Notes under the pieces: model-generated
What the model was told of the DNA's origin: nothing
What the model saw: the letters and a program-made list of their open reading frames with translations, nothing else
Database searches by the model: none
Program-made: the position numbers and the translations under genes
Part shown: positions 141-13,145 of the stretch, one piece after another
Position numbering within the stretch: position 1 is the stretch's first letter
Layout of the letters: every line of letters begins with the position of its first letter
Source of the DNA: Acutalibacteraceae bacterium
GTDB lineage: Bacteria; Bacillota; Clostridia; Oscillospirales; Acutalibacteraceae
NCBI GenBank assembly: GCA_045639705.1
Contig: JAZUDP010000156.1
Location: 1 to 30,415 of the forward strand
Direction: 5' to 3'
Length of the DNA stretch: 30,415 nt

Positions 141-312
141 CCGTTATATAGAATCTATAACATTTGCTTGTTCTGTTTTCCTCTCCCACCGACGCGGTAA
201 AAATTAACGCAGTTATCGAATTAAAAAATTGATATTAATCCATAAAAATCAAATTTTATTCAAATGCAATTTTCATACATGTTTATTTATCTGAAAAAAT
301 TATTCATTTTTT

Positions 313-342
313 TCAAACTATTTTTCATTCCGATGCGTCTTA
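313..342 (+). promoter_or_regulatory. ECF-type promoter motif, copy 1: TCAAAC-N17-CGTCTTA
   Basis: TCAAAC is at 313-318, a 17-nt spacer starts with TATTT and ends with TG, and CGTCTTA is at 336-342. A T-rich tract lies upstream. It is near-identical to the copies at 685-714 (+) and 13063-13092 (-). AAC (-35) and CGT (-10) are the hallmarks of ECF sigma promoters. Confidence 0.55.
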
Positions 343-684
343 TGTGTGTAAAGAGAGTAAATCTATGACTGCTCCTTTATAAAATAAAGCTGTGGGGTGT
401 TAATTATAAAAAACGAAGCAGATTTAATGGACAGGCTCATTCATACAGCATTGCTTGCAGCAGAAGAAAAACTTGCAAGTACCTAAATAACAAAAGAGCA
501 AACTGCTGAACATAATCAAGAAAGTTTATACAAAGAAATCGGGACAGCTTCGGAAACGGATAAGTACAAATCGATAAAAACGGGAAAAATTACAGAAAAG
601 CAAACAAATAATATCTGCGCTGTTTGCGGAAACAGTAAATTTATCCGTCTGTTCGTAAAATAATTGAAATTTTTTCAAAAAATT

Positions 685-714
685 TCAAACTATTTTACGT
701 TGAGATGCGTCTTA
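685..714 (+). promoter_or_regulatory. ECF-type promoter motif, copy 2: TCAAAC-N17-CGTCTTA, 185 nt upstream of the 899 ATG
   Basis: TCAAAC is at 685-690, a 17-nt spacer TATTTTACGTTGAGATG follows, and CGTCTTA is at 708-714. It shares TTTCAAACTATTTT and GATGCGTCTTA with copy 1. Confidence 0.6.
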
Positions 715-898
715 CTGGCAAAGGTGAAAAATACTTTCAATTTGAACATATGAGGAGTGAATTTAATGAAAACATAATTCGCAATATCCGGGTTTATCGT
801 TAGTTAAATAAAAACAGAGGATTTTTTATGAAAAAGGCATCAGCATTTATTATTAACACTTGATTTAAAAGAACAAAGTAAAAAACGGAGGAAAAATT

Positions 899-2632
899 AT
901 GAAAGCTATATTTAAAAAAGTTTTATCGTCAACTCTCGCTGCAGCAATGCTGTTCGGAACAGCTCAGCTCGGCGCAAACTCAGACTTCACCATCAAGGCA
1001 AGTGCCGAAGAAAACACTTCTTACACCTTTGATGAAGAAAGCGGAACTCTCACAATGTTAAATGATGTTTTGGATTGGGACAACGAAGAAGCTCTCGAAC
1101 TGATTGCAAAAGCCAAAACAGTTTACATCGGAAAGGATATTAAAAATACTGATGTTTTCTTTACCAACAATGTAACCGGATTCGAAATTGACCCTGAAAA
1201 CGAAAACTTCTGCATTTACGACAAGGCTCTGTACACAAGCGATAAATCAAGAATGGTTGCATATCCCTGCGGCAGCGACGATGTTGATATCGTTCTTCCG
1301 AAGGAATGCACGGAAATTTCAGAATACTGCTTCAAGGACTGGAAGCATTATTGTGAATTCGGAGAGAGTATTACAGGCCTCGCATTACCCGTAAGAAACG
1401 ATTATTCGCTGTATATAACGGATAAAAATCAGGCTGAAGCGTTGTCAGATTATTTAGTGGCTTCTATCATTTATCCGTTTTCAAATATTTATCTTGACAA
1501 AACGCAGACGGAAATTGACGAATGGCAATACGATGATTTTTCAGCTGTAGATTTTTACAGATCAGCTGCCGGTTATATGCTTATTACTTATTTAAGCCAC
1601 AGATATGACAGCGAAAAAATGGATATCATTGAAACAGAAAGCAGTACGCTGTTTGAATACGGTATGCCTTTCACAAAGGAAGAATGTGAAACCTACAAAG
1701 AATTACTGCAGAATATGGACTGCTGGGATTATACCGAGCCCACAGCCGATGAGTTTTACGAGAGATACAGCACCGATAATTTTGAAGAAGAGTTTAAGCT
1801 CTGGACAGATTGTCTTAAGCGTGCACATGACTATGCAACAGAAACTTTTGAAAACTATGATGTATTCAAACCGATTTCGGAATATAACGGCGGCATCTGC
1901 GGCGACAATGCAGAATGGAAATATGACAGCACAACAAATACACTTAAAATAAGCGGTTCAGGCTCTGTAAAGGATAATTATTCAGGCTGGGATCTGTTCA
2001 GAGATTCCATAACCTCTGTTGAATTCGGCAACGGCATAACCTCAATCGGTGCAAATGCTTTTGAAGGCTGCAGCAGCATTTCCGATGTATACATAGCTGC
2101 TGATAATTTATCACTCGGAGAAAATGCATTCGGCACAGCCAAGCCGAACTTTATTGCAAAAGACGGTACAACTGCCTGCCGTGCAATTGAAAATGCAGGA
2201 TACAATGTTATCAGATACAGCCTTGACCGTACATTTGCAGAGAAAAAGAAGAGCGAAGAAAAACCCGTTCTTGCATTCCTTGACGCTGTTGCTTCCGAGA
2301 ACGGATTGAATTGCAGATATTTCACAAAGCTCATTCTTGATAATCCCGAAGCAGCTTATGTGTATTTTGAAAGTGTTAACCTGAATGACTTAACCGGTGA
2401 CGGTATAGTTATTGATACTGAAAGCAAAACAGACTGCTGTGAGCAGATATACTTCCGTGTTGAAGCACAGGATACCGACGGAGACGGTCAGGCTGACACC
2501 GTTAAGCTTTCCGATGTGGAAGCAGAAAAAACTTTCGTCGAAAAGGTTAAAGGATTCTTTGAAAAAGTTGTTGAATTTTTCTCGAATGTCTTTAATTCAA
2601 TTGGCGGATTTTTCAAAAATCTCTTTAATTAA
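899..2632 (+). CDS. Secreted BspA-type leucine-rich-repeat (LRR_5-like) protein with an amphipathic C-terminal tail
   Basis: RBS GGAGGAAAAATT precedes the ATG. The N-terminal signal peptide is MKAIFKKVLSSTLAAAMLFGTAQLGA...KASA. The motif CGDNAEWKYDSTTNTLKISGSGS...ITSVEFGNGITSIGANAFEGCSSISDVYI is typical of BspA/LRR_5 surface proteins. The last ~32 aa (FVEKVKGFFEKVVEFFSNVFNSIGGFFKNLFN) are a strongly amphipathic Phe-rich helix. Confidence 0.8.
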   Translation: MKAIFKKVLSSTLAAAMLFGTAQLGANSDFTIKASAEENTSYTFDEESGTLTMLNDVLDWDNEEALELIAKAKTVYIGKDIKNTDVFFTNNVTGFEIDPENENFCIYDKALYTSDKSRMVAYPCGSDDVDIVLPKECTEISEYCFKDWKHYCEFGESITGLALPVRNDYSLYITDKNQAEALSDYLVASIIYPFSNIYLDKTQTEIDEWQYDDFSAVDFYRSAAGYMLITYLSHRYDSEKMDIIETESSTLFEYGMPFTKEECETYKELLQNMDCWDYTEPTADEFYERYSTDNFEEEFKLWTDCLKRAHDYATETFENYDVFKPISEYNGGICGDNAEWKYDSTTNTLKISGSGSVKDNYSGWDLFRDSITSVEFGNGITSIGANAFEGCSSISDVYIAADNLSLGENAFGTAKPNFIAKDGTTACRAIENAGYNVIRYSLDRTFAEKKKSEEKPVLAFLDAVASENGLNCRYFTKLILDNPEAAYVYFESVNLNDLTGDGIVIDTESKTDCCEQIYFRVEAQDTDGDGQADTVKLSDVEAEKTFVEKVKGFFEKVVEFFSNVFNSIGGFFKNLFN

Positions 2633-2640
2633 AACCAAGC

Positions 2641-2675
2641 AAAAAATCTCCCGATTTTTCGGGAGATTTCTTTTT
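2641..2675. terminator. Bidirectional rho-independent terminator between convergent genes
   Basis: AAAAAATCTCCCG-attttt-CGGGAGATTTCTTTTT has A-run and T-run flanks on both sides. It overlaps the stop codon of the minus-strand gene. Confidence 0.8.
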
Positions 2676-5600
2676 ATCCGAATTTCATTATTCTGAATAC
2701 CGACAGAATATAATTTAATAATTTTATAAGCGCTTCTGTCAGAATATCAATCAGAGCTTTTGGTGTTTCGGGAGACTCTGCGGCAAATTCAATACTCTGA
2801 TCAACAAGATTAAGATACTCATTATATACCGAACTCGTTGTCAAAGCTTCTTCATCGCCGCTGTTCTGTTCAATTTCAGAAAGAAGAACGCCTGCCTGCT
2901 GCAGAATAAACACATCCTCGTTGTTTATTTCTCCGTCACGGTTACAGTCCGCCGCCTTCCAGACAGCCTCGCTCACATCTTCGCGGGTCAGCATACCGCT
3001 TGCAATACACGATACTGTCATCGCGTCCGTTCCGTCATACCAGCCGTCACCGTTTACATCACCGAAAATAACTGCGGTGTAAATAACTGTATTATCATTG
3101 TTTTCCGATCTGTCAAGATTGTTTTTCACAGTGATAACCGAGCCGGTAACTGCCCTCTTTGTATTGCAGTAAGCACTGATACTGCCGCCGCTGTTATTTA
3201 CATAGCCGTCTATGCTGCTGCCGGGCTTAAAGCCGAAAATTAAACCGCAGCCGTCAGACCGTACAGAATTGCAGAACGGATTTTTGAAGTCTTCAAAATT
3301 TTCAAAATTATAAAATGAATGTTCCCCTATCGACGGATAAGCTTTACTGTCGCTGTCAAAATAAAACGTGTACCATTTGTCATTTCCCGTATTACATGGG
3401 CAGTTACAGAAAGCATAATCGCCGATTTCCTTTATTTTATAGTTATAATCTGCGTCTTCATCATATTCAAATTCAACAGTTTTTAAATTCACACAGTTTT
3501 TGAACGCAGACCGTCCAATTTCCGTTACCGTATTCGGAATGATTACAGCGGTTAATCCCGTACAGCCGTAAAAAGCATAATCGCCGATTTTTTCAAGTCT
3601 GTCTGCTTTGGAAAAATCTATTTTGTTAATGCCCGTACACTCTCTGAATGCGTCGCTTCCGATTTCTTCAACACCTTCGGGAATAATAAACGTACCTCTT
3701 ACATTCGCCGAAACGCTTTTCAGAACCGTCTTTTTAGAGTCGCCGAACAGAATGTCGGTACTGCTTCCGCCAAAATCAAATCCTGCGACACATGAGGCAA
3801 ACGGATTTCTGTTGCCGTATTTTACATTTCCGCCGATATTGATTTTCTGAAGCCTTCTGCATCTGTAAAATGCAAGGTCGGAAACATAAGCGTTATCTAC
3901 TATTGTATATTCCGTGCCGTCCTTCATTGCGGGATACTGAATAATTGTATTTCCGTCTGCCGATGCAAGAACGCCGTCAATATCGCAATATTCGGAATTG
4001 CCGTTTTCAACATTAAAGCTTTTCAGTCCCGTACAGCCGTAAAATGCGAGATGACCGATTTCGTTTACACCCACAGGTATTGTAATTTCACCAAGCGATA
4101 TGCAGTCCGCAAAAGCATTGTCGCCGATTTCGGTTATATTGCCGTTCAGCGCAACCGATTTCAGATTCATACAGCCGCTAAATGTATTTTTATCAATAAT
4201 CCTTACGCTGTCGGGAACAGTAATGCTTTCGAGACTTGTACAGCCCGAAAAGGCTCCCGCGGCTATCTGCATGGTTCCGTCTCTGATTGTAAATGCACTT
4301 ACATCGGGTGCGACGGAAATAAGCACGGAATCAATATATAATGTTGTTTTTACCTCAGCCTCAACCTCAGTCTCTTCATCCGTTTTTGAATCATCTGTAA
4401 AGAGATTTTCTCCCACATATTTAAGGCTTTTCGGAAGATTTATTGAATTCTTTACAGAAGCCGAGCAGCCGCTGAACGCATTGCTGCCGAGGAAGCTGAG
4501 TCTGCTGTTTTCTCCGCAGCTAAAGCCTGTCAGAGCCGTACATTTTTCAAAAGCTCTGTCTGCAATGCCCCTGACATCATCATCAAGACTGTATTTTCCT
4601 CGGAGCTTTGTTTTTGAAGAAACGATATAGCCGCCTATAATCAATACGTTAGAAACCCATTCGCCCGCATTTTTATAATTACCCGAATTGAAGAACGCCT
4701 TTGCACCGATGCTTTTCAGACTTACTGTTCCGGGAATCTCAACAAAAACATTTATGCAGTTTACAAAAGCATTTTCGCATATGTGAGTTATACTGTCCGG
4801 CACAACATATTCCCCTGCAGAATTTCTGTTGCAGAACAGTATTCCCGTACCGTTTTCATTCAGAGACATATCGTTATCCGAAACTGACGCGGTGAAAAGA
4901 ACATTATTTTCAATCGGTATTGTATATACAACACCGAAGTCGTCTGTATTATCGGGAGCAATTACATACTGTAGATTGTCACAGCCGGAAACAGCCGTGT
5001 CTGCAAAATAAACTGAGCTTGAAAAGTTTATTGTCGTTACATTCTCACAGTTAAGGAAGCAGTTTTCTCCGACTTCTTCAACCGTGTCGGGGATTATAAC
5101 CGTTCCCTCTGCATCCGGAGTACATCCCAGAAGCAATTCCTTGCTCGAATCATAATAATACAGACCGTCTTCAACATATGCATCAACAGCCTTAGCCCCC
5201 CACGGCGAGCCCTGCCGATGCATAACATTATTGTACCAGTTATCCGAATAGGTGATATTATTAACAAAGCGGAATGCGTCTTTGCCTATATCGGTAACGC
5301 TGTTCGGGATTGTGATACTCTGTAAAAGCTGGCATAAGTAAAACGCATTCTCGCCTATACTGACAACACCGTCCGGGATGGAAATCGCTGCTAATTTTTT
5401 GCATGCCCAGAAGGACTGCGTTCCTATACTTGTGACGCTGTCCGGGATTGTGACACTTTTCAAATGGCTACAGCAAAAAAACATTCTATCGGGAATATAT
5501 GTAATACCTTGCGGAATTACAAAATCCGTAAGATTTTCACACCTTGCAATTGCACTGTCACCGATATATGCAACGCTGTCAGGGAAAGTAATACTTTCAA

Positions 5601-7725
5601 TGTTTGTACAGTATGAAAATGCACCGTTACCTATATATGTCACAGTCTCGGGTATAGTGATATCCGTCAGCCCCGAGCACGCACCAAATGCACATTCGCC
5701 TATATATGTAACGCTGTCGGGAATTGTAATATCGGTTAAGGATTTACATCCTTCAAACACACGGTCGCTGATGCTTACAATACCGTCGGGTATGTTTACG
5801 TTTTTTAAATTTGAGCAGTAGTAAAACGCCTGATTTTCAATATTCTCAATACTGTCGGGAATGTTTATATCTGTCAATGCACTGCAATCACAAAATGCAC
5901 GGCGGCCGATATTAACAACACCCTCGGAAATAACCACCTCCGTCAGACTTGAACAGCGTGAAAAAGCATCCTTACTGATATCCCTTACACCTTTGGGAAC
6001 AGTTACTGTTCCTGTTAAGCTCACACAGCTTTCAAAAGCACTCTGACCGATATATGTAACACTGTCAGGAATAGAGATTTTTATCAGACTTTTGCAGACA
6101 GAAAATGCGTTATCGCCTATATATTTCAGATTTTTCGGCATGACGATATCCGTCATAGCTGAGCAAAAATAAAAGGCATTCTCTTCAATATCTGTCACGC
6201 TATCCGGTAAAACTATACTTAGCAGGTCCTCACAGTAATAAAATGCATTTTCCCCTATGCTTTTAACTCCGTACGGAATTACTGTATTTTTAATTCCCGC
6301 AACCAGTTTATCCGAAGATGTTTCTATAATTCCGCTGCAGTTTTCACGGCTGTCATATTTCGCGTTGTTTTCATCGACCGTAATACTTGTTAAGAACGAG
6401 CAATTAGTGAATGCGCTGCCGTCTATATTCGCAACATTTTTCGGAATGTTTATGCTTGTCAGACCTGTACAATAAGCAAACGCCCGTTCGCCAATACTTA
6501 CCACACTGTCAGGAATAATAATGCTTGTCAGTTTTTCGCAGTGTTCAAGTGCCCGGAGCCCGATGTTTGTCACACCGTCGGGAATAACAATATCCGTTAA
6601 GTTCTCGCAAGAGTAAAATGTGAAAGGCTCTATGCTTGTAAGTCCGGCAGGCATTGTGATATCTGTTAAGCTTATGCAGTAATAAAATGCCTCCCAACCG
6701 ACAGAAGTCACGCTGTCCGGAATATCTGCGCTTATCAGAGCTGTACAGCAATAAAAGGCTTTGTCTCCGATAGAGGTAACGCCGTCGGGAATGTTTGCAC
6801 TTATCAATCCGGTACAATTACAGAAGGCTTGGGCTTCGATAGAGGTAACACCGTCGGGAATAACAATATGCTTTAATCCCGAACAGCCGTAAAATGCACG
6901 GTAGCTTATTCTTGTTACACCGTCGGGAATACTTATATCGGTCAGACCTGTACAGTTTTCAAATGCATTTGTACCGATATATGTTACATTGCGGGAAATC
7001 GTTACACCTGTTAAACGATTACAGCCAGAAAATGCAGAGTTTCCTATTTTTGTAACGCTGTCAGGGATTACGATGTCTGTAAGGCCTGTGCATTTAAAAA
7101 ACGCATTGTCCTCTATACTTTTAACGCCATTTGAAATTGTTATTTCTTTCAGACCGGTGCATTGGGAAAATGCGTAGCTTCCGATGCTTGTAACCAGGCC
7201 CGGAATCGTTATGTCTGTTAAACCGCTGCAGTTGGAAAATGCAGAGCCTCCGATGCTTGTAACCCCTTCGGGAATCGTTACACCTGTTAAACGTTTGCAA
7301 CCGGAAAAGGCAACGTTTTCTATTTTTGTAACACTGTCAGGAATCGTTATGTCTGTCAGGTTCGTGCAATTATAAAAAATATATCTTCCTATACTTGTAA
7401 CACCGTAATTAATTATAACTTTTTCTATTGACACATTATTATAAAACGGCGTTGAAGAAGAGCTGAAGCTTGTCATACTGCCTGTACCGCTGATTGTGAG
7501 AGTACCTGTGGCTTCATCCAACTCCCAGTAAACGTTATCTCCACACTGTCCGCTTGCGGCAAGTGCAGATGCCGAAAAACTTAACCGGACACTGTCAAAC
7601 CAATCTGCTATTTTTTTTAATGCACCCGAAAGATTTATATCTGTCAGTCCCTCCAGCGGTGCTGCACCGAAAAGCATGACAACGCACAGCAATATTGAAA
7701 TACTGTTTTTTATAATCTTTTTCAT
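2674..7725 (-). CDS. Giant (1683 aa) secreted BspA-type LRR protein with a near-C-terminal type-I dockerin and an extra amphipathic tail
   Basis: RBS GGAGGGAAAAAGCA precedes the ATG. The signal peptide is MKKIIKNSISILLCVVMLFGAAP. There are dozens of ~23-aa IPDSVTSIG..AF..C..L..I units (LRR_5-like). Dockerin duplicated Ca-loops are GDVNGDGWYDGTDAMTV and DCNRDGEINNEDVFILQQ. Confidence 0.9.
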   Translation of the reverse strand: MKKIIKNSISILLCVVMLFGAAPLEGLTDINLSGALKKIADWFDSVRLSFSASALAASGQCGDNVYWELDEATGTLTISGTGSMTSFSSSSTPFYNNVSIEKVIINYGVTSIGRYIFYNCTNLTDITIPDSVTKIENVAFSGCKRLTGVTIPEGVTSIGGSAFSNCSGLTDITIPGLVTSIGSYAFSQCTGLKEITISNGVKSIEDNAFFKCTGLTDIVIPDSVTKIGNSAFSGCNRLTGVTISRNVTYIGTNAFENCTGLTDISIPDGVTRISYRAFYGCSGLKHIVIPDGVTSIEAQAFCNCTGLISANIPDGVTSIGDKAFYCCTALISADIPDSVTSVGWEAFYYCISLTDITMPAGLTSIEPFTFYSCENLTDIVIPDGVTNIGLRALEHCEKLTSIIIPDSVVSIGERAFAYCTGLTSINIPKNVANIDGSAFTNCSFLTSITVDENNAKYDSRENCSGIIETSSDKLVAGIKNTVIPYGVKSIGENAFYYCEDLLSIVLPDSVTDIEENAFYFCSAMTDIVMPKNLKYIGDNAFSVCKSLIKISIPDSVTYIGQSAFESCVSLTGTVTVPKGVRDISKDAFSRCSSLTEVVISEGVVNIGRRAFCDCSALTDINIPDSIENIENQAFYYCSNLKNVNIPDGIVSISDRVFEGCKSLTDITIPDSVTYIGECAFGACSGLTDITIPETVTYIGNGAFSYCTNIESITFPDSVAYIGDSAIARCENLTDFVIPQGITYIPDRMFFCCSHLKSVTIPDSVTSIGTQSFWACKKLAAISIPDGVVSIGENAFYLCQLLQSITIPNSVTDIGKDAFRFVNNITYSDNWYNNVMHRQGSPWGAKAVDAYVEDGLYYYDSSKELLLGCTPDAEGTVIIPDTVEEVGENCFLNCENVTTINFSSSVYFADTAVSGCDNLQYVIAPDNTDDFGVVYTIPIENNVLFTASVSDNDMSLNENGTGILFCNRNSAGEYVVPDSITHICENAFVNCINVFVEIPGTVSLKSIGAKAFFNSGNYKNAGEWVSNVLIIGGYIVSSKTKLRGKYSLDDDVRGIADRAFEKCTALTGFSCGENSRLSFLGSNAFSGCSASVKNSINLPKSLKYVGENLFTDDSKTDEETEVEAEVKTTLYIDSVLISVAPDVSAFTIRDGTMQIAAGAFSGCTSLESITVPDSVRIIDKNTFSGCMNLKSVALNGNITEIGDNAFADCISLGEITIPVGVNEIGHLAFYGCTGLKSFNVENGNSEYCDIDGVLASADGNTIIQYPAMKDGTEYTIVDNAYVSDLAFYRCRRLQKINIGGNVKYGNRNPFASCVAGFDFGGSSTDILFGDSKKTVLKSVSANVRGTFIIPEGVEEIGSDAFRECTGINKIDFSKADRLEKIGDYAFYGCTGLTAVIIPNTVTEIGRSAFKNCVNLKTVEFEYDEDADYNYKIKEIGDYAFCNCPCNTGNDKWYTFYFDSDSKAYPSIGEHSFYNFENFEDFKNPFCNSVRSDGCGLIFGFKPGSSIDGYVNNSGGSISAYCNTKRAVTGSVITVKNNLDRSENNDNTVIYTAVIFGDVNGDGWYDGTDAMTVSCIASGMLTREDVSEAVWKAADCNRDGEINNEDVFILQQAGVLLSEIEQNSGDEEALTTSSVYNEYLNLVDQSIEFAAESPETPKALIDILTEALIKLLNYILSVFRIMKFG
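2881..3063 (-). other. Dockerin (type I-like) module within the giant LRR protein
   Basis: Two EF-hand-like 12-residue loops, each followed by a helix (DVNGDGWYDGTD..., DCNRDGEINNED...), match the canonical dockerin duplicated-segment pattern. The module sits about 68 aa before the C-terminus. Confidence 0.75.
5265..7419 (-). repeat. Densest in-frame array of ~69-bp LRR_5 coding repeats inside the giant gene
   Basis: The I/V-P-D/E-x-V-T-x-I-G-x-x-A-F-x-x-C-x-x-L unit recurs periodically. The periodicity also creates the spurious antisense ORFs with repeated VTLSGIV. Boundaries are approximate. Confidence 0.7.
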
Positions 7726-7746
7726 TGCTTTTTCCCTCCGTGAAAT

Positions 7747-9549
7747 TTAACGTCTTTTGAAACGGAACAGCTCAAAGAACTGTGCAAGAATCAATCTTAA
7801 TGTCTTGAATGTTTCTGCAATAGTCTGAGTTACATCGGGAACCGAAATTTTAATCCGAACGCTTATACTGTCTCCGTCCGCAGTTATTTCACACTCTTTC
7901 TGCACGCCGTTGACCTGTACCGTCAATTCTTCTGAATAATATCCCGATATTTTTATTTCCGCAAAGTATTCGTTTAATCCGCCGATTTCGTTGACGCTTT
8001 CTTTCAGGCTTTCGTCCTTAAAAAGGGAAATCTCAGCCGGAACAGTAAGCACCGAGCCGTCGTCAAATGTCAGTATTGTACTCTTAACCGCCCCGTTTTC
8101 ATCAGTCAGAATGTTCAGCCCGTTAACGCAGGCAGAGCCGATACCCTGTCCGGCAATTTTCAGCCGTCCTCTGCCGCCGTCCCAGCTTCCGTCAAATTCA
8201 ATCATTGTTTTAAATGTGCCGTCACTGTTTTTAAGACGCTTATAATCTGCAGCTACGGCTTCTTCTATCGTACTGTCTCTTTCAAAAGGCTCATAAAAAT
8301 CTTCATTCTCATACAAATAGCTGTCAAAGCCGTCTATTCTGCTGATTACCGTATCCTTTGTAAATCTGTAACCGTCAGCAGGAATTATATAAAAGCAGTT
8401 GTTAATACTGTTTTTCCTTACGATATGCTCTGTTGACGAAGTACCGAGACAGTATTCACTGTTGTTTTCAACTGAAATCTGAATATTCTGCACATCTTCG
8501 TTCCAGTTTTCATCCTTGACTGCCGATTTAACCGTCATTCTGTTAAGGGGCAAAAGTGAAAAATAGCAATAAACCGTATCGGGCGAGACTGAAATATTTT
8601 CACCTGTTACTTTTAATCTGCCGCTTAACACGGGGCGGTCAAAAAGTATAAGATTACAGCCGTTTTTCAGTGCGGCCTTACCGCTGAACGCAGTCGTTTT
8701 TCCGACTTTAACGGTTATTTCTTCAACCGAAGAAGAAAACGCCCTCACGTTTATACCGTAAATAAAGCCTACATGCCTTAAAAGCTGATTTCCCTTAAGC
8801 GTCAGATTAATGCCGTTAACACGGCTGACCTCAAGCGCCGCCGCATAAATAAGCGGCGCAGAATATGAAAGATAAAAATATCCTCCGTCTCCGAAATCTG
8901 TTCCGCTGCTGTTTTTGCATATCCACGCGCCGTTTTTCTTGCCGAGGCTTTTTCCGTTTTCACCCTTGTTGAAATTATTACGGTTATAATTATCGTCCCA
9001 GCCGACAATAGAAATCGCGTGATACTTATCACTGTTTCCTCCGCTGTAGGCAAAGCTGTGCGCTGCTTCGCTGTAATATCTTGAATCAGTCAGTCCGTCC
9101 TCATCAGGAACTGCAATTGCTGCAACAATCGCACCGTTTTCGCTGATTTTTTCTTTCAGATATCTGTCGCCTCTGCCCGAAAGAAATTCAACAGAGGTAA
9201 TCGCATATCCGTTTCCGATATTACAGCCGATGCTTTTGTAAAGCACATCTCCGAAGTTATGTATATCGGGATTTCCCGCCTCTTCTGCAAGACTTTCTTC
9301 GTTAAAATCAGCCTCACTGTCAGATGCATCGAAGTATTTTTTTGCATAGCTGCCCGCCGTTGAAAGTATTGAATAATAAAGACAGCTGTCCTCAATTTCC
9401 GCCTTCTCCACCGGCGGAGCATAATCCGCGTTGCTGAACTCTGAGGAATAAGAGCAATCCTGGGCAGGAACAGCCGCCGAACTGATAACGCATCCAAACA
9501 GCAAAGAAATAACACAGATTACCGAAATAACCGCTTTAAGCTTTTTCAT
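7747..9549 (-). CDS. Secreted papain-like (peptidase C1-like) protein with a ~350-aa C-terminal beta-rich extension and an amphipathic basic tail
   Basis: The signal peptide is MKKLKAVISVICVISLLFGCVISSAA. C1 motifs are present: YHAISIVGWDD (His), NGAWICKNSSGTDFGDGGYFYLSY (Asn block), and candidate Cys in EDSCLYYS. Start: the ATG at 9549 has better RBS spacing (GGAGAATGAAT) than the ATG at 9555. The 9555 ATG overlaps the upstream TGA as ATGA. Confidence 0.7.
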   Translation of the reverse strand: MKKLKAVISVICVISLLFGCVISSAAVPAQDCSYSSEFSNADYAPPVEKAEIEDSCLYYSILSTAGSYAKKYFDASDSEADFNEESLAEEAGNPDIHNFGDVLYKSIGCNIGNGYAITSVEFLSGRGDRYLKEKISENGAIVAAIAVPDEDGLTDSRYYSEAAHSFAYSGGNSDKYHAISIVGWDDNYNRNNFNKGENGKSLGKKNGAWICKNSSGTDFGDGGYFYLSYSAPLIYAAALEVSRVNGINLTLKGNQLLRHVGFIYGINVRAFSSSVEEITVKVGKTTAFSGKAALKNGCNLILFDRPVLSGRLKVTGENISVSPDTVYCYFSLLPLNRMTVKSAVKDENWNEDVQNIQISVENNSEYCLGTSSTEHIVRKNSINNCFYIIPADGYRFTKDTVISRIDGFDSYLYENEDFYEPFERDSTIEEAVAADYKRLKNSDGTFKTMIEFDGSWDGGRGRLKIAGQGIGSACVNGLNILTDENGAVKSTILTFDDGSVLTVPAEISLFKDESLKESVNEIGGLNEYFAEIKISGYYSEELTVQVNGVQKECEITADGDSISVRIKISVPDVTQTIAETFKTLRLILAQFFELFRFKRR

Positions 9550-9551
9550 AT

Positions 9552-11378
9552 TCATTCTCCAATTCTTTCAATAAAATCTGAAAGTGCCGTAATCATTTTT
9601 TCAATATACTCAAATATCAAGTCGTTGTGGAAATCGTATTCAAGTATTTCTTTTATGACAGGTATCTCTTTTCCTTTTTCTTCAAGTCCGTCAATTTTAT
9701 CAGTATCCGTCAGCCGGGCCTGAATATTGTCGATTACATCGTTCTGCCATGCAACCCATCTGTCAAATGCAGAAATATTTTCATCTGCCCTGCCGTCCTC
9801 GGAGGAATACAGATGAACAACAAAAACCAGCTTTTTGCTCTCGGGATTTTCAGCAACACCGATACCTATTTTTTCAAAATCTCCGCTGATTTTTTCATCC
9901 TTAAGTATTGAGGCTGCAGCAGTTTCGTACGACGAATAATCAACCCTTCTTATTTCATCTCTTGAGCCGGTCGAATAGCCGTTGTGTTCAAACAGAGCCG
10001 TATAGTCCGTTCCGTCAGGTCTTATTGCCGTATCTCTTTCCGTCCATGCGATTTCTTCAGCTCTTACGTTTGCCTGCTCAGTCAGGATATCGTCAAGCAC
10101 AAGAGCTTTCTTGTTTTCGGAAGCTCTTTTTTCATTTATTTCTGCAAGTGAATCGTTGATATATGCAATATATTTACTTTGGTTTTCTTTTGCCGCCGGC
10201 AGCAGTTCCTCATAGCTTGCTTTAAAATTTTTTCTGTTCAGAACAGGTCTGCCCGAATATACATCGCCGTTTCTGTTTGCATAACGCTGAATAGTGTATT
10301 CCACTCCGTATTTAAGCTTTCCTTTTTCAAAATAAGTATCGGCAAGCTTATTCTCTGCAACCGTGTATGCCTCTGTCGGCTTTTCCGTAATCGCTTCGGT
10401 AACAGACTCAATATATGTCGGTTCGGTATATTCCTCTGCAACGGCAGTTGTCGGTTCTTCTGTCTGACGGTTCTTTAATGCCCGGGTTCCTGCGATACCT
10501 CCGCCTGCAATAACGCCTGCGATAACAACGCATGCGATGATTTTTGCGGCAATGCCCGTGCCTGCTGCGGCCGTACCTGCGGCAGCAAGGCCCGAAGCTG
10601 CATAAGGAGCAACGGAAGTTGAAGCGGCGGAGGTTTTGAGTACCCAGCCGATAAGCGTTGCAGGTGTAACACCAAGAAGCTTACCGTGCTTTGCCTCGTA
10701 AGCGGAAACCGCTTTGGTAATATCCTTTTTAGCCTGAACAAGTCGGCTCTTGATTGTGTTTTCACTTACACCGACAGACTCTGAAATCTCCCTTGTGGTC
10801 ATGTTGTTGTAATAGTAGAGGATGACAGCGGCTTTCTTTTCCTCGCTGAGATTCTCAATCATGTCCATAACGGTTCTGCACAGTTCTTCCTTTTCAAGGT
10901 CGGATTCGGGCAGAAAGCTTTCATAATCCTCAGAGGTCGCCTCGTCAATATATGCCTGCTTTTTTGATTCTCCGATGCTCATGCCGTCATCGCTGTTATG
11001 GTCGGAATAATCGTCACTGTAATCTCCGAATTCCTTTGCCCACTCGTCGTCAAGATTTGAATAATCTTCTTCCTGAGTTTTTTCATAGAATCGGGGATTA
11101 TTCTTTCTTATTACGGATTTAGCCTGATTGGCAACAATCATGTTGAACCAGCTCATAAAGGTTGTCGGATCTTTAAGCGTGCCGATTTTATCCATAACCT
11201 TTATGTAACAATCCTGCATGACATCGTCAGCATCGGATTCATTATTGTTAAGTATTTTTAAAGCGGTGAATTTTGCCGTGCGGTAAGTCATGTTGTAAAT
11301 CTGTTCAAACGCGCTGCCGTCACCGTTCTGATACTTTACAACCAGTTTGCTAAGCTCGTTATAATCAATTTCAGCCAT
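9552..11378 (-). CDS. ECF-like sigma-70 family factor fused to a transmembrane segment and a C-terminal CAP/SCP (YkwD-like) domain
   Basis: Region 2 reads DDVMQDCYIKVMDKIGTLKDPTTFMSWFNMIVANQAKSVIRK. Region 4 HTH reads LSEEKKAAVILYYYNNMTTREISESVGVSENTIKSRLVQAKKDI. An ~80-aa acidic linker lies between them. An Ala/Gly-rich hydrophobic segment is IAAKIIACVVIAGVIAGGGIAG. The C-terminal part reads INEKRASENKKALVLDDILTEQANVRAEEIAW...RPDG...FEKIGIGVAE...VFVVHLY, which resembles CAP domains. Confidence 0.75.
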   Translation of the reverse strand: MAEIDYNELSKLVVKYQNGDGSAFEQIYNMTYRTAKFTALKILNNNESDADDVMQDCYIKVMDKIGTLKDPTTFMSWFNMIVANQAKSVIRKNNPRFYEKTQEEDYSNLDDEWAKEFGDYSDDYSDHNSDDGMSIGESKKQAYIDEATSEDYESFLPESDLEKEELCRTVMDMIENLSEEKKAAVILYYYNNMTTREISESVGVSENTIKSRLVQAKKDITKAVSAYEAKHGKLLGVTPATLIGWVLKTSAASTSVAPYAASGLAAAGTAAAGTGIAAKIIACVVIAGVIAGGGIAGTRALKNRQTEEPTTAVAEEYTEPTYIESVTEAITEKPTEAYTVAENKLADTYFEKGKLKYGVEYTIQRYANRNGDVYSGRPVLNRKNFKASYEELLPAAKENQSKYIAYINDSLAEINEKRASENKKALVLDDILTEQANVRAEEIAWTERDTAIRPDGTDYTALFEHNGYSTGSRDEIRRVDYSSYETAAASILKDEKISGDFEKIGIGVAENPESKKLVFVVHLYSSEDGRADENISAFDRWVAWQNDVIDNIQARLTDTDKIDGLEEKGKEIPVIKEILEYDFHNDLIFEYIEKMITALSDFIERIGE

Positions 11379-11390
11379 CCGCTCACATCC

Positions 11391-11519
11391 TTATTTCAGG
11401 CAGTTTTTCGACTTCAAATATTCCGTAAGAATATCAATAAGCATTTTCAGTTTCTCTTCCGGAGAAATCTCCATTTTTGAAGCATATTCATTCAATACCT
11501 GTCGTATTAAACTATTCAT
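11391..11519 (-). CDS. 42-aa small ORF (MNSLIRQVLNEYASKMEISPEEKLKMLIDILTEYLKSKNCLK), first gene of the sigma operon; absent from the ORF track
   Basis: Hand translation of the minus strand. RBS GAGAGGTG lies 5 nt before the ATG. The stop is 12 nt upstream of the sigma ATG. It is predicted all-helical. It shares the heptapeptide LIDILTE with the C-terminal tail of the giant LRR protein. Confidence 0.5.
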   Translation of the reverse strand: MNSLIRQVLNEYASKMEISPEEKLKMLIDILTEYLKSKNCLK

Positions 11520-11556
11520 TTTAACACCTCTCGTTCAGCCGAAAGATGCTGTTTTA

Positions 11557-11585
11557 ATAATAGCACCCTTCAACAGAAATGTAAA
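11557..11585 (-). promoter_or_regulatory. SigA-type promoter for the sORF/sigma operon (TTTACA-N17-TATTAT)
   Basis: Read on the minus strand, -35 is at 11585-11580 and -10 is at 11562-11557, about 38 nt upstream of the sORF ATG. Confidence 0.45.
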
Positions 11586-11872
11586 ATATTATATCGGCGA
11601 TTTAAAAAATTAACACAGGATATTTATAAATGATTTTTCACTGGCGGTTTTATATCCGTCGTCGGTCTGCTTGAATGCCCCGAAGTCTGTCGGATTCTGC
11701 ATTAAAAGTTCACCTCTTTGCTCCGAGAATGCTCATGTTGAATATTAACCGGCAGAACAATGTGAATTGCATTTTTGCTTGATACGCTGTTCCAAACCGA
11801 TGTTGCAGAAATGCCGCAGTTACAGAAAATCATTTCGCAAGCATTCTTTGATTTAATTTTTTGTTAACCTTA

Positions 11873-13006
11873 TTATGCCGTTTCAAACCATTCAATCAGG
11901 CCGTTATCAAAGCAAAGATTAACATTTTCTCCAAGGCTGTTTACCGTTGTGTCCGGCAAAGGAGAGTTATCCGCAATTTTACATAAGTTGTAACCGATTG
12001 TCTTTGCAAGGAAATGAGATATTCCGGGATGAGAACTGTCAGGAAGAACTACGCGATTACTGAAGACTGACCAACGGCAGTGTTCCTTCACATTTGTTTT
12101 TTCACACAGACGGTTCCAGGTTACATTCTGATTTGCGATGTAATTTATAAGCGGGTCTGTCTTTGCGGATATTATCCAGATAGGAAGATTTGATACTTTT
12201 TCAAGTTCTTTATTGGTAGGTATCTTTGTAGCACAAAGTGCAACACCTGAGGTGAAACGGTTCGGATGATTTATCATAAGCTTCCACACAACCCCGCCGC
12301 CGGCAGAGCCGCCCATAATCAGTATTTTATTCTCGTCGATATTTTCTTTGTTGTCGTTTATATACTCCTGAATAACACTGTAAACAGATTCTGACTGAGC
12401 GGACGAAAGCTTAAATTCAGAAAGTTTCGGCATAAGCAGATGAGCGCCGCCGGCTTCAAACTTTTCCTGAATTTCCGTACAGCACCAGTATGCGAGTCCG
12501 CTCTTTACAAAGGTTTTGTCGGTCCAGCCATGAAATCTGCCGTGTACATATATAACAAGCGGATACTTTGCAGTATCGTTTTCGTCAGCAACAGGTGAAT
12601 AATATGCATATTTCATTCCGCAGCCGGACTTTTTAATTGTAAACTGTTCAAGAAGTTTGTTGTAGCCGTTATTTATGCTGAATGTTTCTTTTTTTATTAT
12701 GACGGGCTGCTCCGGTTCATCAGGCTGCACCGGCTCATCAGGCTGCTCCGGTTCATCAGGCTGCACCGGCTCATCAGGCTGCTCCGGCTCGTCAGGCTGC
12801 TCCGGCTCGTCAGGCTGCTCCGGCTCGTCAGGCTGTACCGGTTCGTCAGGCTGTTTTTCAGGGTCTTCTGTCGTATTCTCTGTTTCTTCTTCAGTGAGAG
12901 TTGTTTCTGTCGGGTTTTCTGCATCCTCTGCATATGCCGGAAATGTTGTGTTCGCCATTGTAAAAACACAAATGATTGCAAGCAGAATTGATAAGATTTT
13001 TTTCAT
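11873..13006 (-). CDS. Secreted alpha/beta-hydrolase esterase (CE1/PHB-depolymerase-like) with an N-terminal acidic Pro-rich repeat linker
   Basis: The start was trimmed to the ATG at 13006 (RBS AGGAG, signal peptide MKKILSILLAIICVFTMANTTFPAYA). The ORF-track N-terminal extension runs through the promoter and terminators. Motifs seen: nucleophile elbow IMGGSAGGG, YPLVIYVHGRFHGW, SAKTDPL, and a late His in SSHPGISHF. Confidence 0.8.
   Translation of the reverse strand: MKKILSILLAIICVFTMANTTFPAYAEDAENPTETTLTEEETENTTEDPEKQPDEPVQPDEPEQPDEPEQPDEPEQPDEPVQPDEPEQPDEPVQPDEPEQPVIIKKETFSINNGYNKLLEQFTIKKSGCGMKYAYYSPVADENDTAKYPLVIYVHGRFHGWTDKTFVKSGLAYWCCTEIQEKFEAGGAHLLMPKLSEFKLSSAQSESVYSVIQEYINDNKENIDENKILIMGGSAGGGVVWKLMINHPNRFTSGVALCATKIPTNKELEKVSNLPIWIISAKTDPLINYIANQNVTWNRLCEKTNVKEHCRWSVFSNRVVLPDSSHPGISHFLAKTIGYNLCKIADNSPLPDTTVNSLGENVNLCFDNGLIEWFETA
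12704..12853 (-). repeat. 18-bp in-frame tandem repeat encoding (QPDEP[E/V]) x8
   Basis: Directly visible CCGG[C/T]TC[A/G]TCAGGCTG[C/T][A/T]C periodicity. It translates to QPDEPVQPDEPEQPDEPE... within the esterase. Confidence 0.9.
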
Positions 13007-13062: not shown

Positions 13063-13092
13063 TAAGATGCAGAAGGAACTGAAATAGTTTGA
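13063..13092 (-). promoter_or_regulatory. ECF-type promoter motif, copy 3: TCAAAC-N17-CATCTTA, 57 nt upstream of the esterase ATG
   Basis: The minus strand reads ATATCAAACTATTTCAGTTCCTTCTGCATCTTATAGG. TCAAACTATTT is identical to copies 1 and 2, the spacing is the same 17 nt, and TGC[A]TCTTA differs by one base. A T/A-rich tract lies upstream. Confidence 0.55.
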
Positions 13093-13110: not shown

Positions 13111-13145
13111 AAAAAAAATTAGAGCAGAGGTTGCAGCCTCTGCTC
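13111..13145 (-). terminator. Rho-independent terminator (GAGCAGAGG-ctgcaa-CCTCTGCTC + T8) on the minus strand
   Basis: A 9-bp GC-rich stem is followed by TAATTTTTTTT on the minus strand, immediately upstream of the esterase promoter. Confidence 0.7.

Follow-up and report, generated by a model that had tools for sequence, protein, structure and literature searches.

The question raised by this locus, a contig of 30,415 nucleotides from an Acutalibacteraceae bacterium (in the following: the window), is which sigma factor reads the near-identical elements that precede a gene for a secreted leucine-rich repeat (LRR) protein close to its 5' end. An earlier note had described two such copies as ECF-type promoters, had mentioned a third copy on the other strand and had put forward a sigma-CAP fusion encoded on the same contig as the likely reader. 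The two plus-strand copies were recovered with the position, the shared sequence and the AAC-to-CGTC spacing of 17 nt that had been reported. Copy 1 (P1; 312-343, +) reads TTCAAACTATTT-ttcattccga-TGCGTCTTAT and has its -35 TTCAAAC at 312-318, followed by the T-tract TATTT, and its -10 CGTC at 336-339 within TGCGTCTTAT; copy 2 (P2; 684-715, +) reads TTCAAACTATTT-tacgttgaga-TGCGTCTTAC, with AAAC at 687-690 and CGTC at 708-711. Copy 3 (P3; 13093-13062, -) reads ATCAAACTATTT-cagttccttc-TGCATCTTAT and indeed has the same geometry, with AAC at 13089-13087, but its -10 is CATC (13069-13066) and not CGTC, a difference that had gone unmentioned. The AAAC-TATTT arrangement, with the T-tract adjoining the -35, is found in all three copies. 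The T-rich tracts that had been seen 5' of the copies also hold up, as A/T-rich tracts in front of all three: that of copy 1 covers 283-311 (+), directly 5' of the -35, and that of copy 2 covers 654-683 (+) and includes a second TTCAAA one helical turn 5' of the -35.

The extended pattern CAAACTATTT-N10-TGCRTCTTA matches the window exactly three times, at 314-342 (+), 686-714 (+) and 13063-13091 (-), and a search that tolerated up to three mismatches returned the same three sites and no others over the 30 kb. Dinucleotide shuffles of the window contained 0.03 matches on average and none of the 100 shuffles reached three. The bare signature AAAC-N17-CGTC is not significant by itself (2 occurrences vs 1.17 expected), and the significance of the sites thus derives from their extended identity over 19-22 nt. 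The leave-one-out scores with a position weight matrix (PWM) were 39.9 bits for copy 1, 29.7 bits for copy 2 and 26.4 bits for copy 3; a PWM built from the 19 family sites described below picked up nothing else in the window, even when the threshold was lowered to 6 bits. The 10-nt spacers and the flanks of the three copies show no sequence kinship, so that the copies are not recent duplicates of each other. Comparison of the region 200-900 with related loci (blastn and tblastx) recovered only the motif and some 30 nt upstream of it; the copy 2 region is 86% identical over 43 nt (blastn) to the site in L014, one of the most closely related loci.

The same element was found 16 more times on unrelated contigs, around homologues of the window protein in which sigma domains, a transmembrane (TM) helix and a CAP domain are fused (sigma-TM-CAP; 9552-11378, -). 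The 19 sites together yield the consensus tTTTTcAAAAAat-TTCAAACTATTT-N10-TG(C/T)GTCTTAT-aGGTGaAAGg, where tTTTTcAAAAAat is a UP-like A/T tract; the UP-element consensus resembles this tract. The element is 32 bp long, its spacing is the same in 19 of 19 sites and the spacer sequence is free. C3-T8, T10-T11, T27-T29 and A31 do not vary over a set of sigma homologues whose identity to the window protein, as aligned within the family, is 29-84%, and 16 sites have T12. An extra TTCAAA often occurs one helical turn upstream of the -35, as in copy 2. The A in the CATC of copy 3 stands where the 18 other sites have G, and this deviation at a near-invariant -10 position counts against the promoter reading. 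All 19 sites are intergenic, point in the same direction as the next gene and lie 25-473 nt upstream of its start codon. We also asked whether position 25 of the -10 (C or T) covaries with the relatedness of the sigma factors, and it does not do so cleanly: L075, whose sigma is 69% identical to that of the window, has T.

The 19 sites all score at least 24 bits and were obtained from 176 kb of sigma-family loci, while about 355 kb of unrelated control loci gave no non-seed site of at least 12 bits. Sigma homology was the criterion by which the loci of 16 of the 19 sites were picked, so that their enrichment close to sigma genes is in part built in; the position and orientation of the sites are not. 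A scan of the GTDB genomes with the strict motif returned 13 single matches, against about 9 expected by chance according to our own estimate, of which only those in L007 and L008 were meaningful, and a metagenome scan with a looser pattern returned 58 single matches, mostly chance-like, with the exception of L035 and a few Acidobacteria-like ECF promoters. The motif was not encountered in the viral contig collection (0 matches) and is therefore not a phage element.

The matches from these scans, in combination with literature, identify the type of promoter. In Paenibacillus ginsengarvi (L007, retrieved by the unbiased genome scan) the identical pattern lies 55 nt upstream of a sigma gene that is a SigV equivalog (251.5 bits vs a cut-off of 190), in L035 the same motif lies 5' of a SigV-like gene, and in L008 it precedes a stand-alone sigma paralogue of 185 aa with 40% identity. 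The autoregulatory promoter of sigV in Bacillus subtilis has GCAAAC as -35 and CGTC as -10 (Gaballa et al. 2018, PMC5758882). The same study found sigmaV to depend critically on a T-tract next to the -35, AAACnTTTt, which the ECF30 and ECF31 consensus sequences retain (PMC5758882). Autoregulation is, moreover, an accepted basis for the prediction of ECF promoters (PMC7826278). Because it matches both the features of the sigV promoter, i.e. a -35 (G/T)CAAAC with T-tract, a -10 CGTC and a location 5' of an ECF sigma gene, and the SigV site of P. ginsengarvi, the window element is, on sequence grounds, of the ECF30/sigmaV type, even though the window sigma is not a SigV orthologue. The claim that the copies are ECF-type promoters is thereby supported, as the same element with the same spacing occurs at sigma homologues on independent contigs. 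Two features set the system apart from that of sigmaV: the window sigma stays below the SigV cut-off (50 vs 190 bits) and its gene is not followed by one for an RsiV-type anti-sigma, and the LRR and hydrolase surface proteins that are targeted in the window differ from the OatA/Dlt-type lysozyme resistance functions of the sigmaV regulon. Unlike the sigmaV promoter, the window family also has a conserved region around +1 that is followed by a hairpin.

This region, aGGTGaAAGg, would comprise approximately the first 10 transcribed bases, is Shine-Dalgarno (SD)-like and is conserved nearly as well as the -35 and -10 over the 19 sites. A hairpin of variable sequence follows 3' of 15 of the 19 family sites, with a mean z of -2.1 compared to -0.24 for control segments. 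Within the window, conserved bases and hairpin occupy 344-383 (+) and 13061-13037 (-), and the hairpin predicted near the 5' end of the P1 transcript (347-381, +) has a ViennaRNA minimum free energy of -9.4 kcal/mol and z = -2.5. The leader composition can be written as AGGTGAAAG/hairpin. Such a conserved SD-like/hairpin leader could act as a 5' mRNA stabiliser or as a binding site for a regulator.

The conservation past the -10 into aGGTGaAAG, the covarying hairpin and the extra TTCAAA one helical turn upstream are also what one might cite in favour of a conventional transcription-factor site or an element of a transcribed leader RNA instead of a promoter. We regard this as highly improbable. 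The two blocks show no repeat relationship to one another, direct or inverted, such as might mark a transcription-factor site, and a fixed spacing around a free spacer is the signature of a two-element promoter, with AAC and CGTC at 17 nt being the hallmark of the ECF class. The search of the whole window against Rfam matched no family, and both in the window and in L075 terminators are located directly 5' of sites, which implies that transcription starts at the sites. The type of promoter also bears on the suggestion in the earlier note that another sigma factor, for instance of the sporulation type, might be responsible, a suggestion that could be widened to any group 3 sigma (sigmaE, K, F, G, H, D or B). 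The -10 of sigmaE and sigmaK promoters is of the CATA type and sigmaF and sigmaG promoters combine GNATA with GGnnAnAHTR/CATnnTA; the motif is unlike the consensus sequences of these factors, fits the ECF30 type and accompanies ECF sigma genes in 9 of 11 loci. A group 3 sigma is therefore extremely unlikely, and a paralogous ECF sigma, or one like sigmaV, that is encoded elsewhere in the genome would be the realistic competitor. The promoters of sigmaI, with an A-tract/CCC -35 and a CGWA -10, differ from the window motif as well.

On the plus strand the sites face two genes. The note had taken the tandem copies together as promoters of the LRR gene, which fits copy 2 and not simply copy 1. Copy 2 lies 184 nt upstream of the start of the gene at 899-2632 (+), which encodes a secreted protein of 577 aa with a signal peptide and a BspA-type LRR_5 repeat (Pfam LRR_5, E = 3e-8), and homologous parts of this gene adjoin motif sites in L015 and L075. 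Copy 1 would serve a small ORF that starts 54 nt further on (397-486, +; GTG at 397 or ATG at 427, in-frame TAA at 484-486, frame open to 663) and encodes MLIIKNEADLMDRLIHTALLAAEEKLAST. Its product aligns with the small ORF of L080 (BLASTP E = 1e-8, 48% identity) across the in-frame stop, and this protein alignment, by which the kinship was recognized, identifies 397-486 as a truncated or pseudogenised member of the family to which the first small ORF of the sigma operons belongs. No terminator was predicted between copy 1 and copy 2 and transcripts from P1 therefore probably reach the LRR gene too. A mini-ORF of 11 codons, MKKASAFIINT*, which has a good ribosome-binding site, is also present at 829-864 (+), within the 184-nt leader that separates copy 2 from the LRR gene.

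On the minus strand copy 3 is insulated from upstream transcription by an intrinsic-terminator-like hairpin (13122-13145, -), an arrangement that recurs in L075. The start codon 56 nt downstream of the copy belongs to a gene for a secreted alpha/beta-hydrolase of 377 aa (11873-13006, -; Pfam Abhydrolase_1), which has a signal peptide and a PDEP-repeat linker; a hydrolase homologue in L015 (44% identity) is likewise preceded by the motif. The linker consists of tandem (Q/E)PDEP(E/V) units over some 60 residues after the signal peptide (about 12698-12877 of the window, -). The hydrolase gene is followed by 353 nt (11520-11872, -) that represent the frameshifted 3' remnant of a gene, with about 90% nucleotide identity to positions 380-600 of L014, where the gene is intact (2-496, ...YNCGVFATSVWNSVSS...), and L075 retains a remnant of the hydrolase 3'-end at the equivalent place. 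These remnants indicate that the slot between motif and sigma operon is a site of repeated gene replacement.

The sigma operon starts immediately beyond the remnant. Its four genes (2674-11519, -) encode: a small protein of 42 aa (11391-11519), without a match in the profile search for families and with tblastn identities of 76% in L014, 68% in L015 and 39% in L077; the sigma-TM-CAP fusion of 608 aa (9552-11378; Pfam, TIGR02937), which is the candidate cognate sigma; a secreted papain-family protein (7747-9555; Pfam Peptidase_C1) that resembles Cwp84 (PDB 4d59 and 4ci7, E = 2e-7) and has a lipobox-like N-terminus (LLFGC); and, as the last gene, a BspA-type LRR_5 protein of 1683 aa with a dockerin (2674-7725; Pfam LRR_5 990 bits, Dockerin_1). 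The order of small ORF (40-59 aa), sigma-TM-CAP, Cwp84-like protein and giant LRR_5 protein, with or without dockerin, is shared with L014, L015, L016, L075, L077, L078 and L079, and the papain-family protein is kept in all sigma operons that were compared.

The fusion protein has sigma region 2 at residues 28-94 and region 4 at 170-219 (Pfam) and thus the composition of an ECF sigma, sigma2 and sigma4 only, without sigma3 or sigma1.1. It scored 93.6 bits on the ECF superfamily model of NCBIfam (TIGR02937; cut-off 42.9) and reached none of the NCBIfam equivalogs, with 50 bits on the SigV model NF053879 (cut-off 190). No RsiV-type anti-sigma gene is present 3' of the sigma gene, where the Cwp84-like protease and the LRR-dockerin protein are encoded. 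The AlphaFold (AF2) model (mean pLDDT 70.9) is divided into sigma2 (1-95), a disordered acidic linker (99-159), sigma4 (160-231), a weak helix with low pLDDT (239-253), the TM helix (277-291) and a confident ectodomain (345-530); in the Foldseek search the N-terminus matched best with sigmaE, AlgU, SigW, SigH and SigL, and the ectodomain with SCP/CAP proteins of bacteria. Neither Pfam nor the AF2 model placed an anti-sigma or zinc-finger domain in the roughly 45 residues between sigma4 and the TM helix (232-276). According to the model, there appears to be no room for a canonical anti-sigma domain there, and a short cryptic inhibitory helix is possible.

The combination of sigma2/sigma4, TM helix and extracytoplasmic domain in one polypeptide resembles that of IutY of Pseudomonas putida (ECF243), SCO4117 (ECF52), ECF48 and ECF53 (PMC8999054). 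As in IutY and ECF52, activation would be expected to proceed via proteolytic release (PMC8999054). Whereas in those types sigma4 is separated from the membrane by an anti-sigma or zinc-finger domain, the window sigma has the 45 or so residues with one low-confidence helix, and whereas their hosts are Proteobacteria and Actinobacteria, the window family occurs in uncultured Clostridia and has a CAP/SCP ectodomain. The SigmaI-RsgI systems, by which cellulolytic clostridia regulate their cellulosome genes, are similar in that an alternative sigma is connected to an extracellular sensing module, the targets are secreted and dockerin-related and the promoters are autoregulated; they differ in that SigmaI is not a canonical ECF sigma and the RsgI anti-sigma is a separate protein (PMC10575876). 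The assignment to ECF288 of the Firmicutes, which carries a Cys-rich extension, was discarded because the CGxxGxGxCxC motif and the DUF2461 neighbour do not fit the window sigma.

The protein search recovered some 34 sigma-TM-CAP homologues with 37-84% identity, in addition to other sigma-TM-X fusions, and about 80 members of the sigma family are detectable, mostly in uncultured Clostridia MAGs. The contigs of nine sigma homologues were examined for operon and motif. The motif was located directly 5' of the sigma gene or of the small leader ORF in six loci (L008, L015, L077, L079, L080 and L081), in L079 as two tandem copies 101 nt apart; this placement is that of an autoregulated sigma gene and speaks for the sigma-CAP fusion as the reader that had been suggested. 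In the window, L075 and L078, a passenger gene for a secreted protein separates the motif from the sigma operon. L016 is motif-free, with a strong promoter of the sigmaA type separating its small ORF from the sigma gene, and L014, whose contig is cut upstream, was kept outside this tally. The other motif targets in the family loci are LRR_5 proteins, a homologue of the window hydrolase, a Flg_new protein and small membrane or secreted proteins.

The note had seen no sign of autoregulation in the window. It is true that neither the window nor L014 and L078, the loci most closely related to it, have the motif directly 5' of the sigma operon; the statement was nevertheless too strong, as copy 3, which shares the strand of the operon, is positioned 1.54 kb upstream of it and is separated from it by nothing more than the hydrolase gene and the pseudogene remnant. 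No terminator was predicted in 11520-11872, so that transcription from P3 could plausibly run on into the sigma operon. The operon has, in addition, a sigmaA-like promoter of its own 5' of the small ORF (11557-11585, -; TTTACA-17-TATTAT with TG), and as this promoter is kept in L014 and L078 the basal expression of sigma need not be autoregulated in these three loci. These sigmaA-like promoters and the motif-free L016 count against the assignment of the sites to the sigma-CAP fusion.

We consider it likely, judging from the comparisons above, that the three sites are ECF (group 4 sigma-70) promoters of the sigmaV/ECF30-like kind that are most likely read by sigma-TM-CAP or a very close paralogue. 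The competing explanation is that the promoters are genuine ECF promoters and are read by another ECF sigma of the same organism, either a SigV/RsiV pair or a stand-alone paralogue like that of L008. The identical motif in front of the SigV equivalog (L007), the SigV-like gene (L035) and the 185-aa stand-alone paralogue (L008) is in line with this and counts against the assignment to sigma-TM-CAP, the ECF sigmas of B. subtilis overlap in promoter recognition at CGTC promoters (PMC5758882), and the sigmaA-like promoter of the window operon points in the same direction. We nonetheless judge a different ECF sigma to be rather unlikely, given that the motif lies directly 5' of the fused sigma genes or the leader ORF in L015, L077, L079, L080 and L081, that the motif sites cluster within a few kb of the fusion genes, with 2-3 sites per locus, and that no second sigma gene was seen in the window, which covers one entire contig of the genome.

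With sigma-TM-CAP or a very close paralogue as the preferred reader, the sites might function as follows. RNA polymerase with the sigma domain of the fusion (9552-11378, -), or with such a paralogue, would read P1-P3, helped by the A/T tract as UP element, and would start transcription some 6-9 nt 3' of CGTC, within TAGGTG. P1 would drive the truncated small-ORF paralogue and probably continue through P2, P2 would drive the secreted LRR_5 gene (899-2632, +), and P3 would drive the secreted hydrolase and may run on into the operon of small ORF, sigma, protease and LRR-dockerin protein, where it could add a weak positive feedback on top of the sigmaA-type promoter. The tethered sigma would be freed by proteolysis, by analogy with IutY and ECF52 (PMC8999054), and the Cwp84-like protein might make the first cut. 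A more complete scheme, which we offer tentatively as something possible and not as something probable, is that sigma-TM-CAP acts as a one-polypeptide transmembrane ECF sigma without anti-sigma, which would be silenced by its membrane tether alone and freed by a cleavage that the Cwp84-like lipoprotein protease initiates when the CAP domain senses an extracellular cue, after which it would drive a regulon of BspA-type LRR and dockerin-bearing surface proteins via sigmaV-like promoters with an SD-like/hairpin leader, with the 40-59-aa protein as accessory regulator.

The type of promoter is known, and an ECF sigma with an AAC/CGTC promoter is the expected kind of result and fairly ordinary regulation in an unstudied lineage of Clostridia. 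The sigma partner and its operon appear to be undescribed: no description of sigma-TM-CAP and its operon was found in the literature that was searched. The motif provides a testable promoter and regulon prediction for an uncharacterised family of ECF sigmas in which the sensor domain is fused across the membrane, and it connects this family to BspA-type LRR and dockerin proteins, which matter for the study of fibre-degrading bacteria; LRR modules among the dockerin proteins of R. flavefaciens have been termed intriguing (PMC3573020). If the tethered sigma circuit proves true, it would constitute a new control of non-enzymatic cellulosome-associated surface proteins in gut and rumen Clostridia. 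From a practical point of view, the 32-bp PWM offers a tool for regulon annotation in MAGs from rumen and gut, and the soluble sigma domain together with P1-P3 would form an orthogonal expression pair.

Some further observations concern the surroundings of the sigma genes. The rest of the contig (15563-30382) encodes a GH10 xylanase, a GH106-like rhamnosidase, an SGNH esterase, a phosphodiesterase and others, none of which has the motif. L077 contains two tandem sigma fusions and two small ORFs (1058-4785), and the sigma homologue of L080 (10001-12106) has an LRR_5 ectodomain in place of CAP, i.e. the same repeat type as is found in the regulon targets. Some of the sigma loci have neighbours related to mobility or defence, namely Mob_Pre, IS66 TnpB, a methylase/restriction/Abi cluster and a family B DNA polymerase (L079 4257-5358, L078 11541-11897 and L081 1-9382), which hints at a location of the sigma module on mobile or variable regions.
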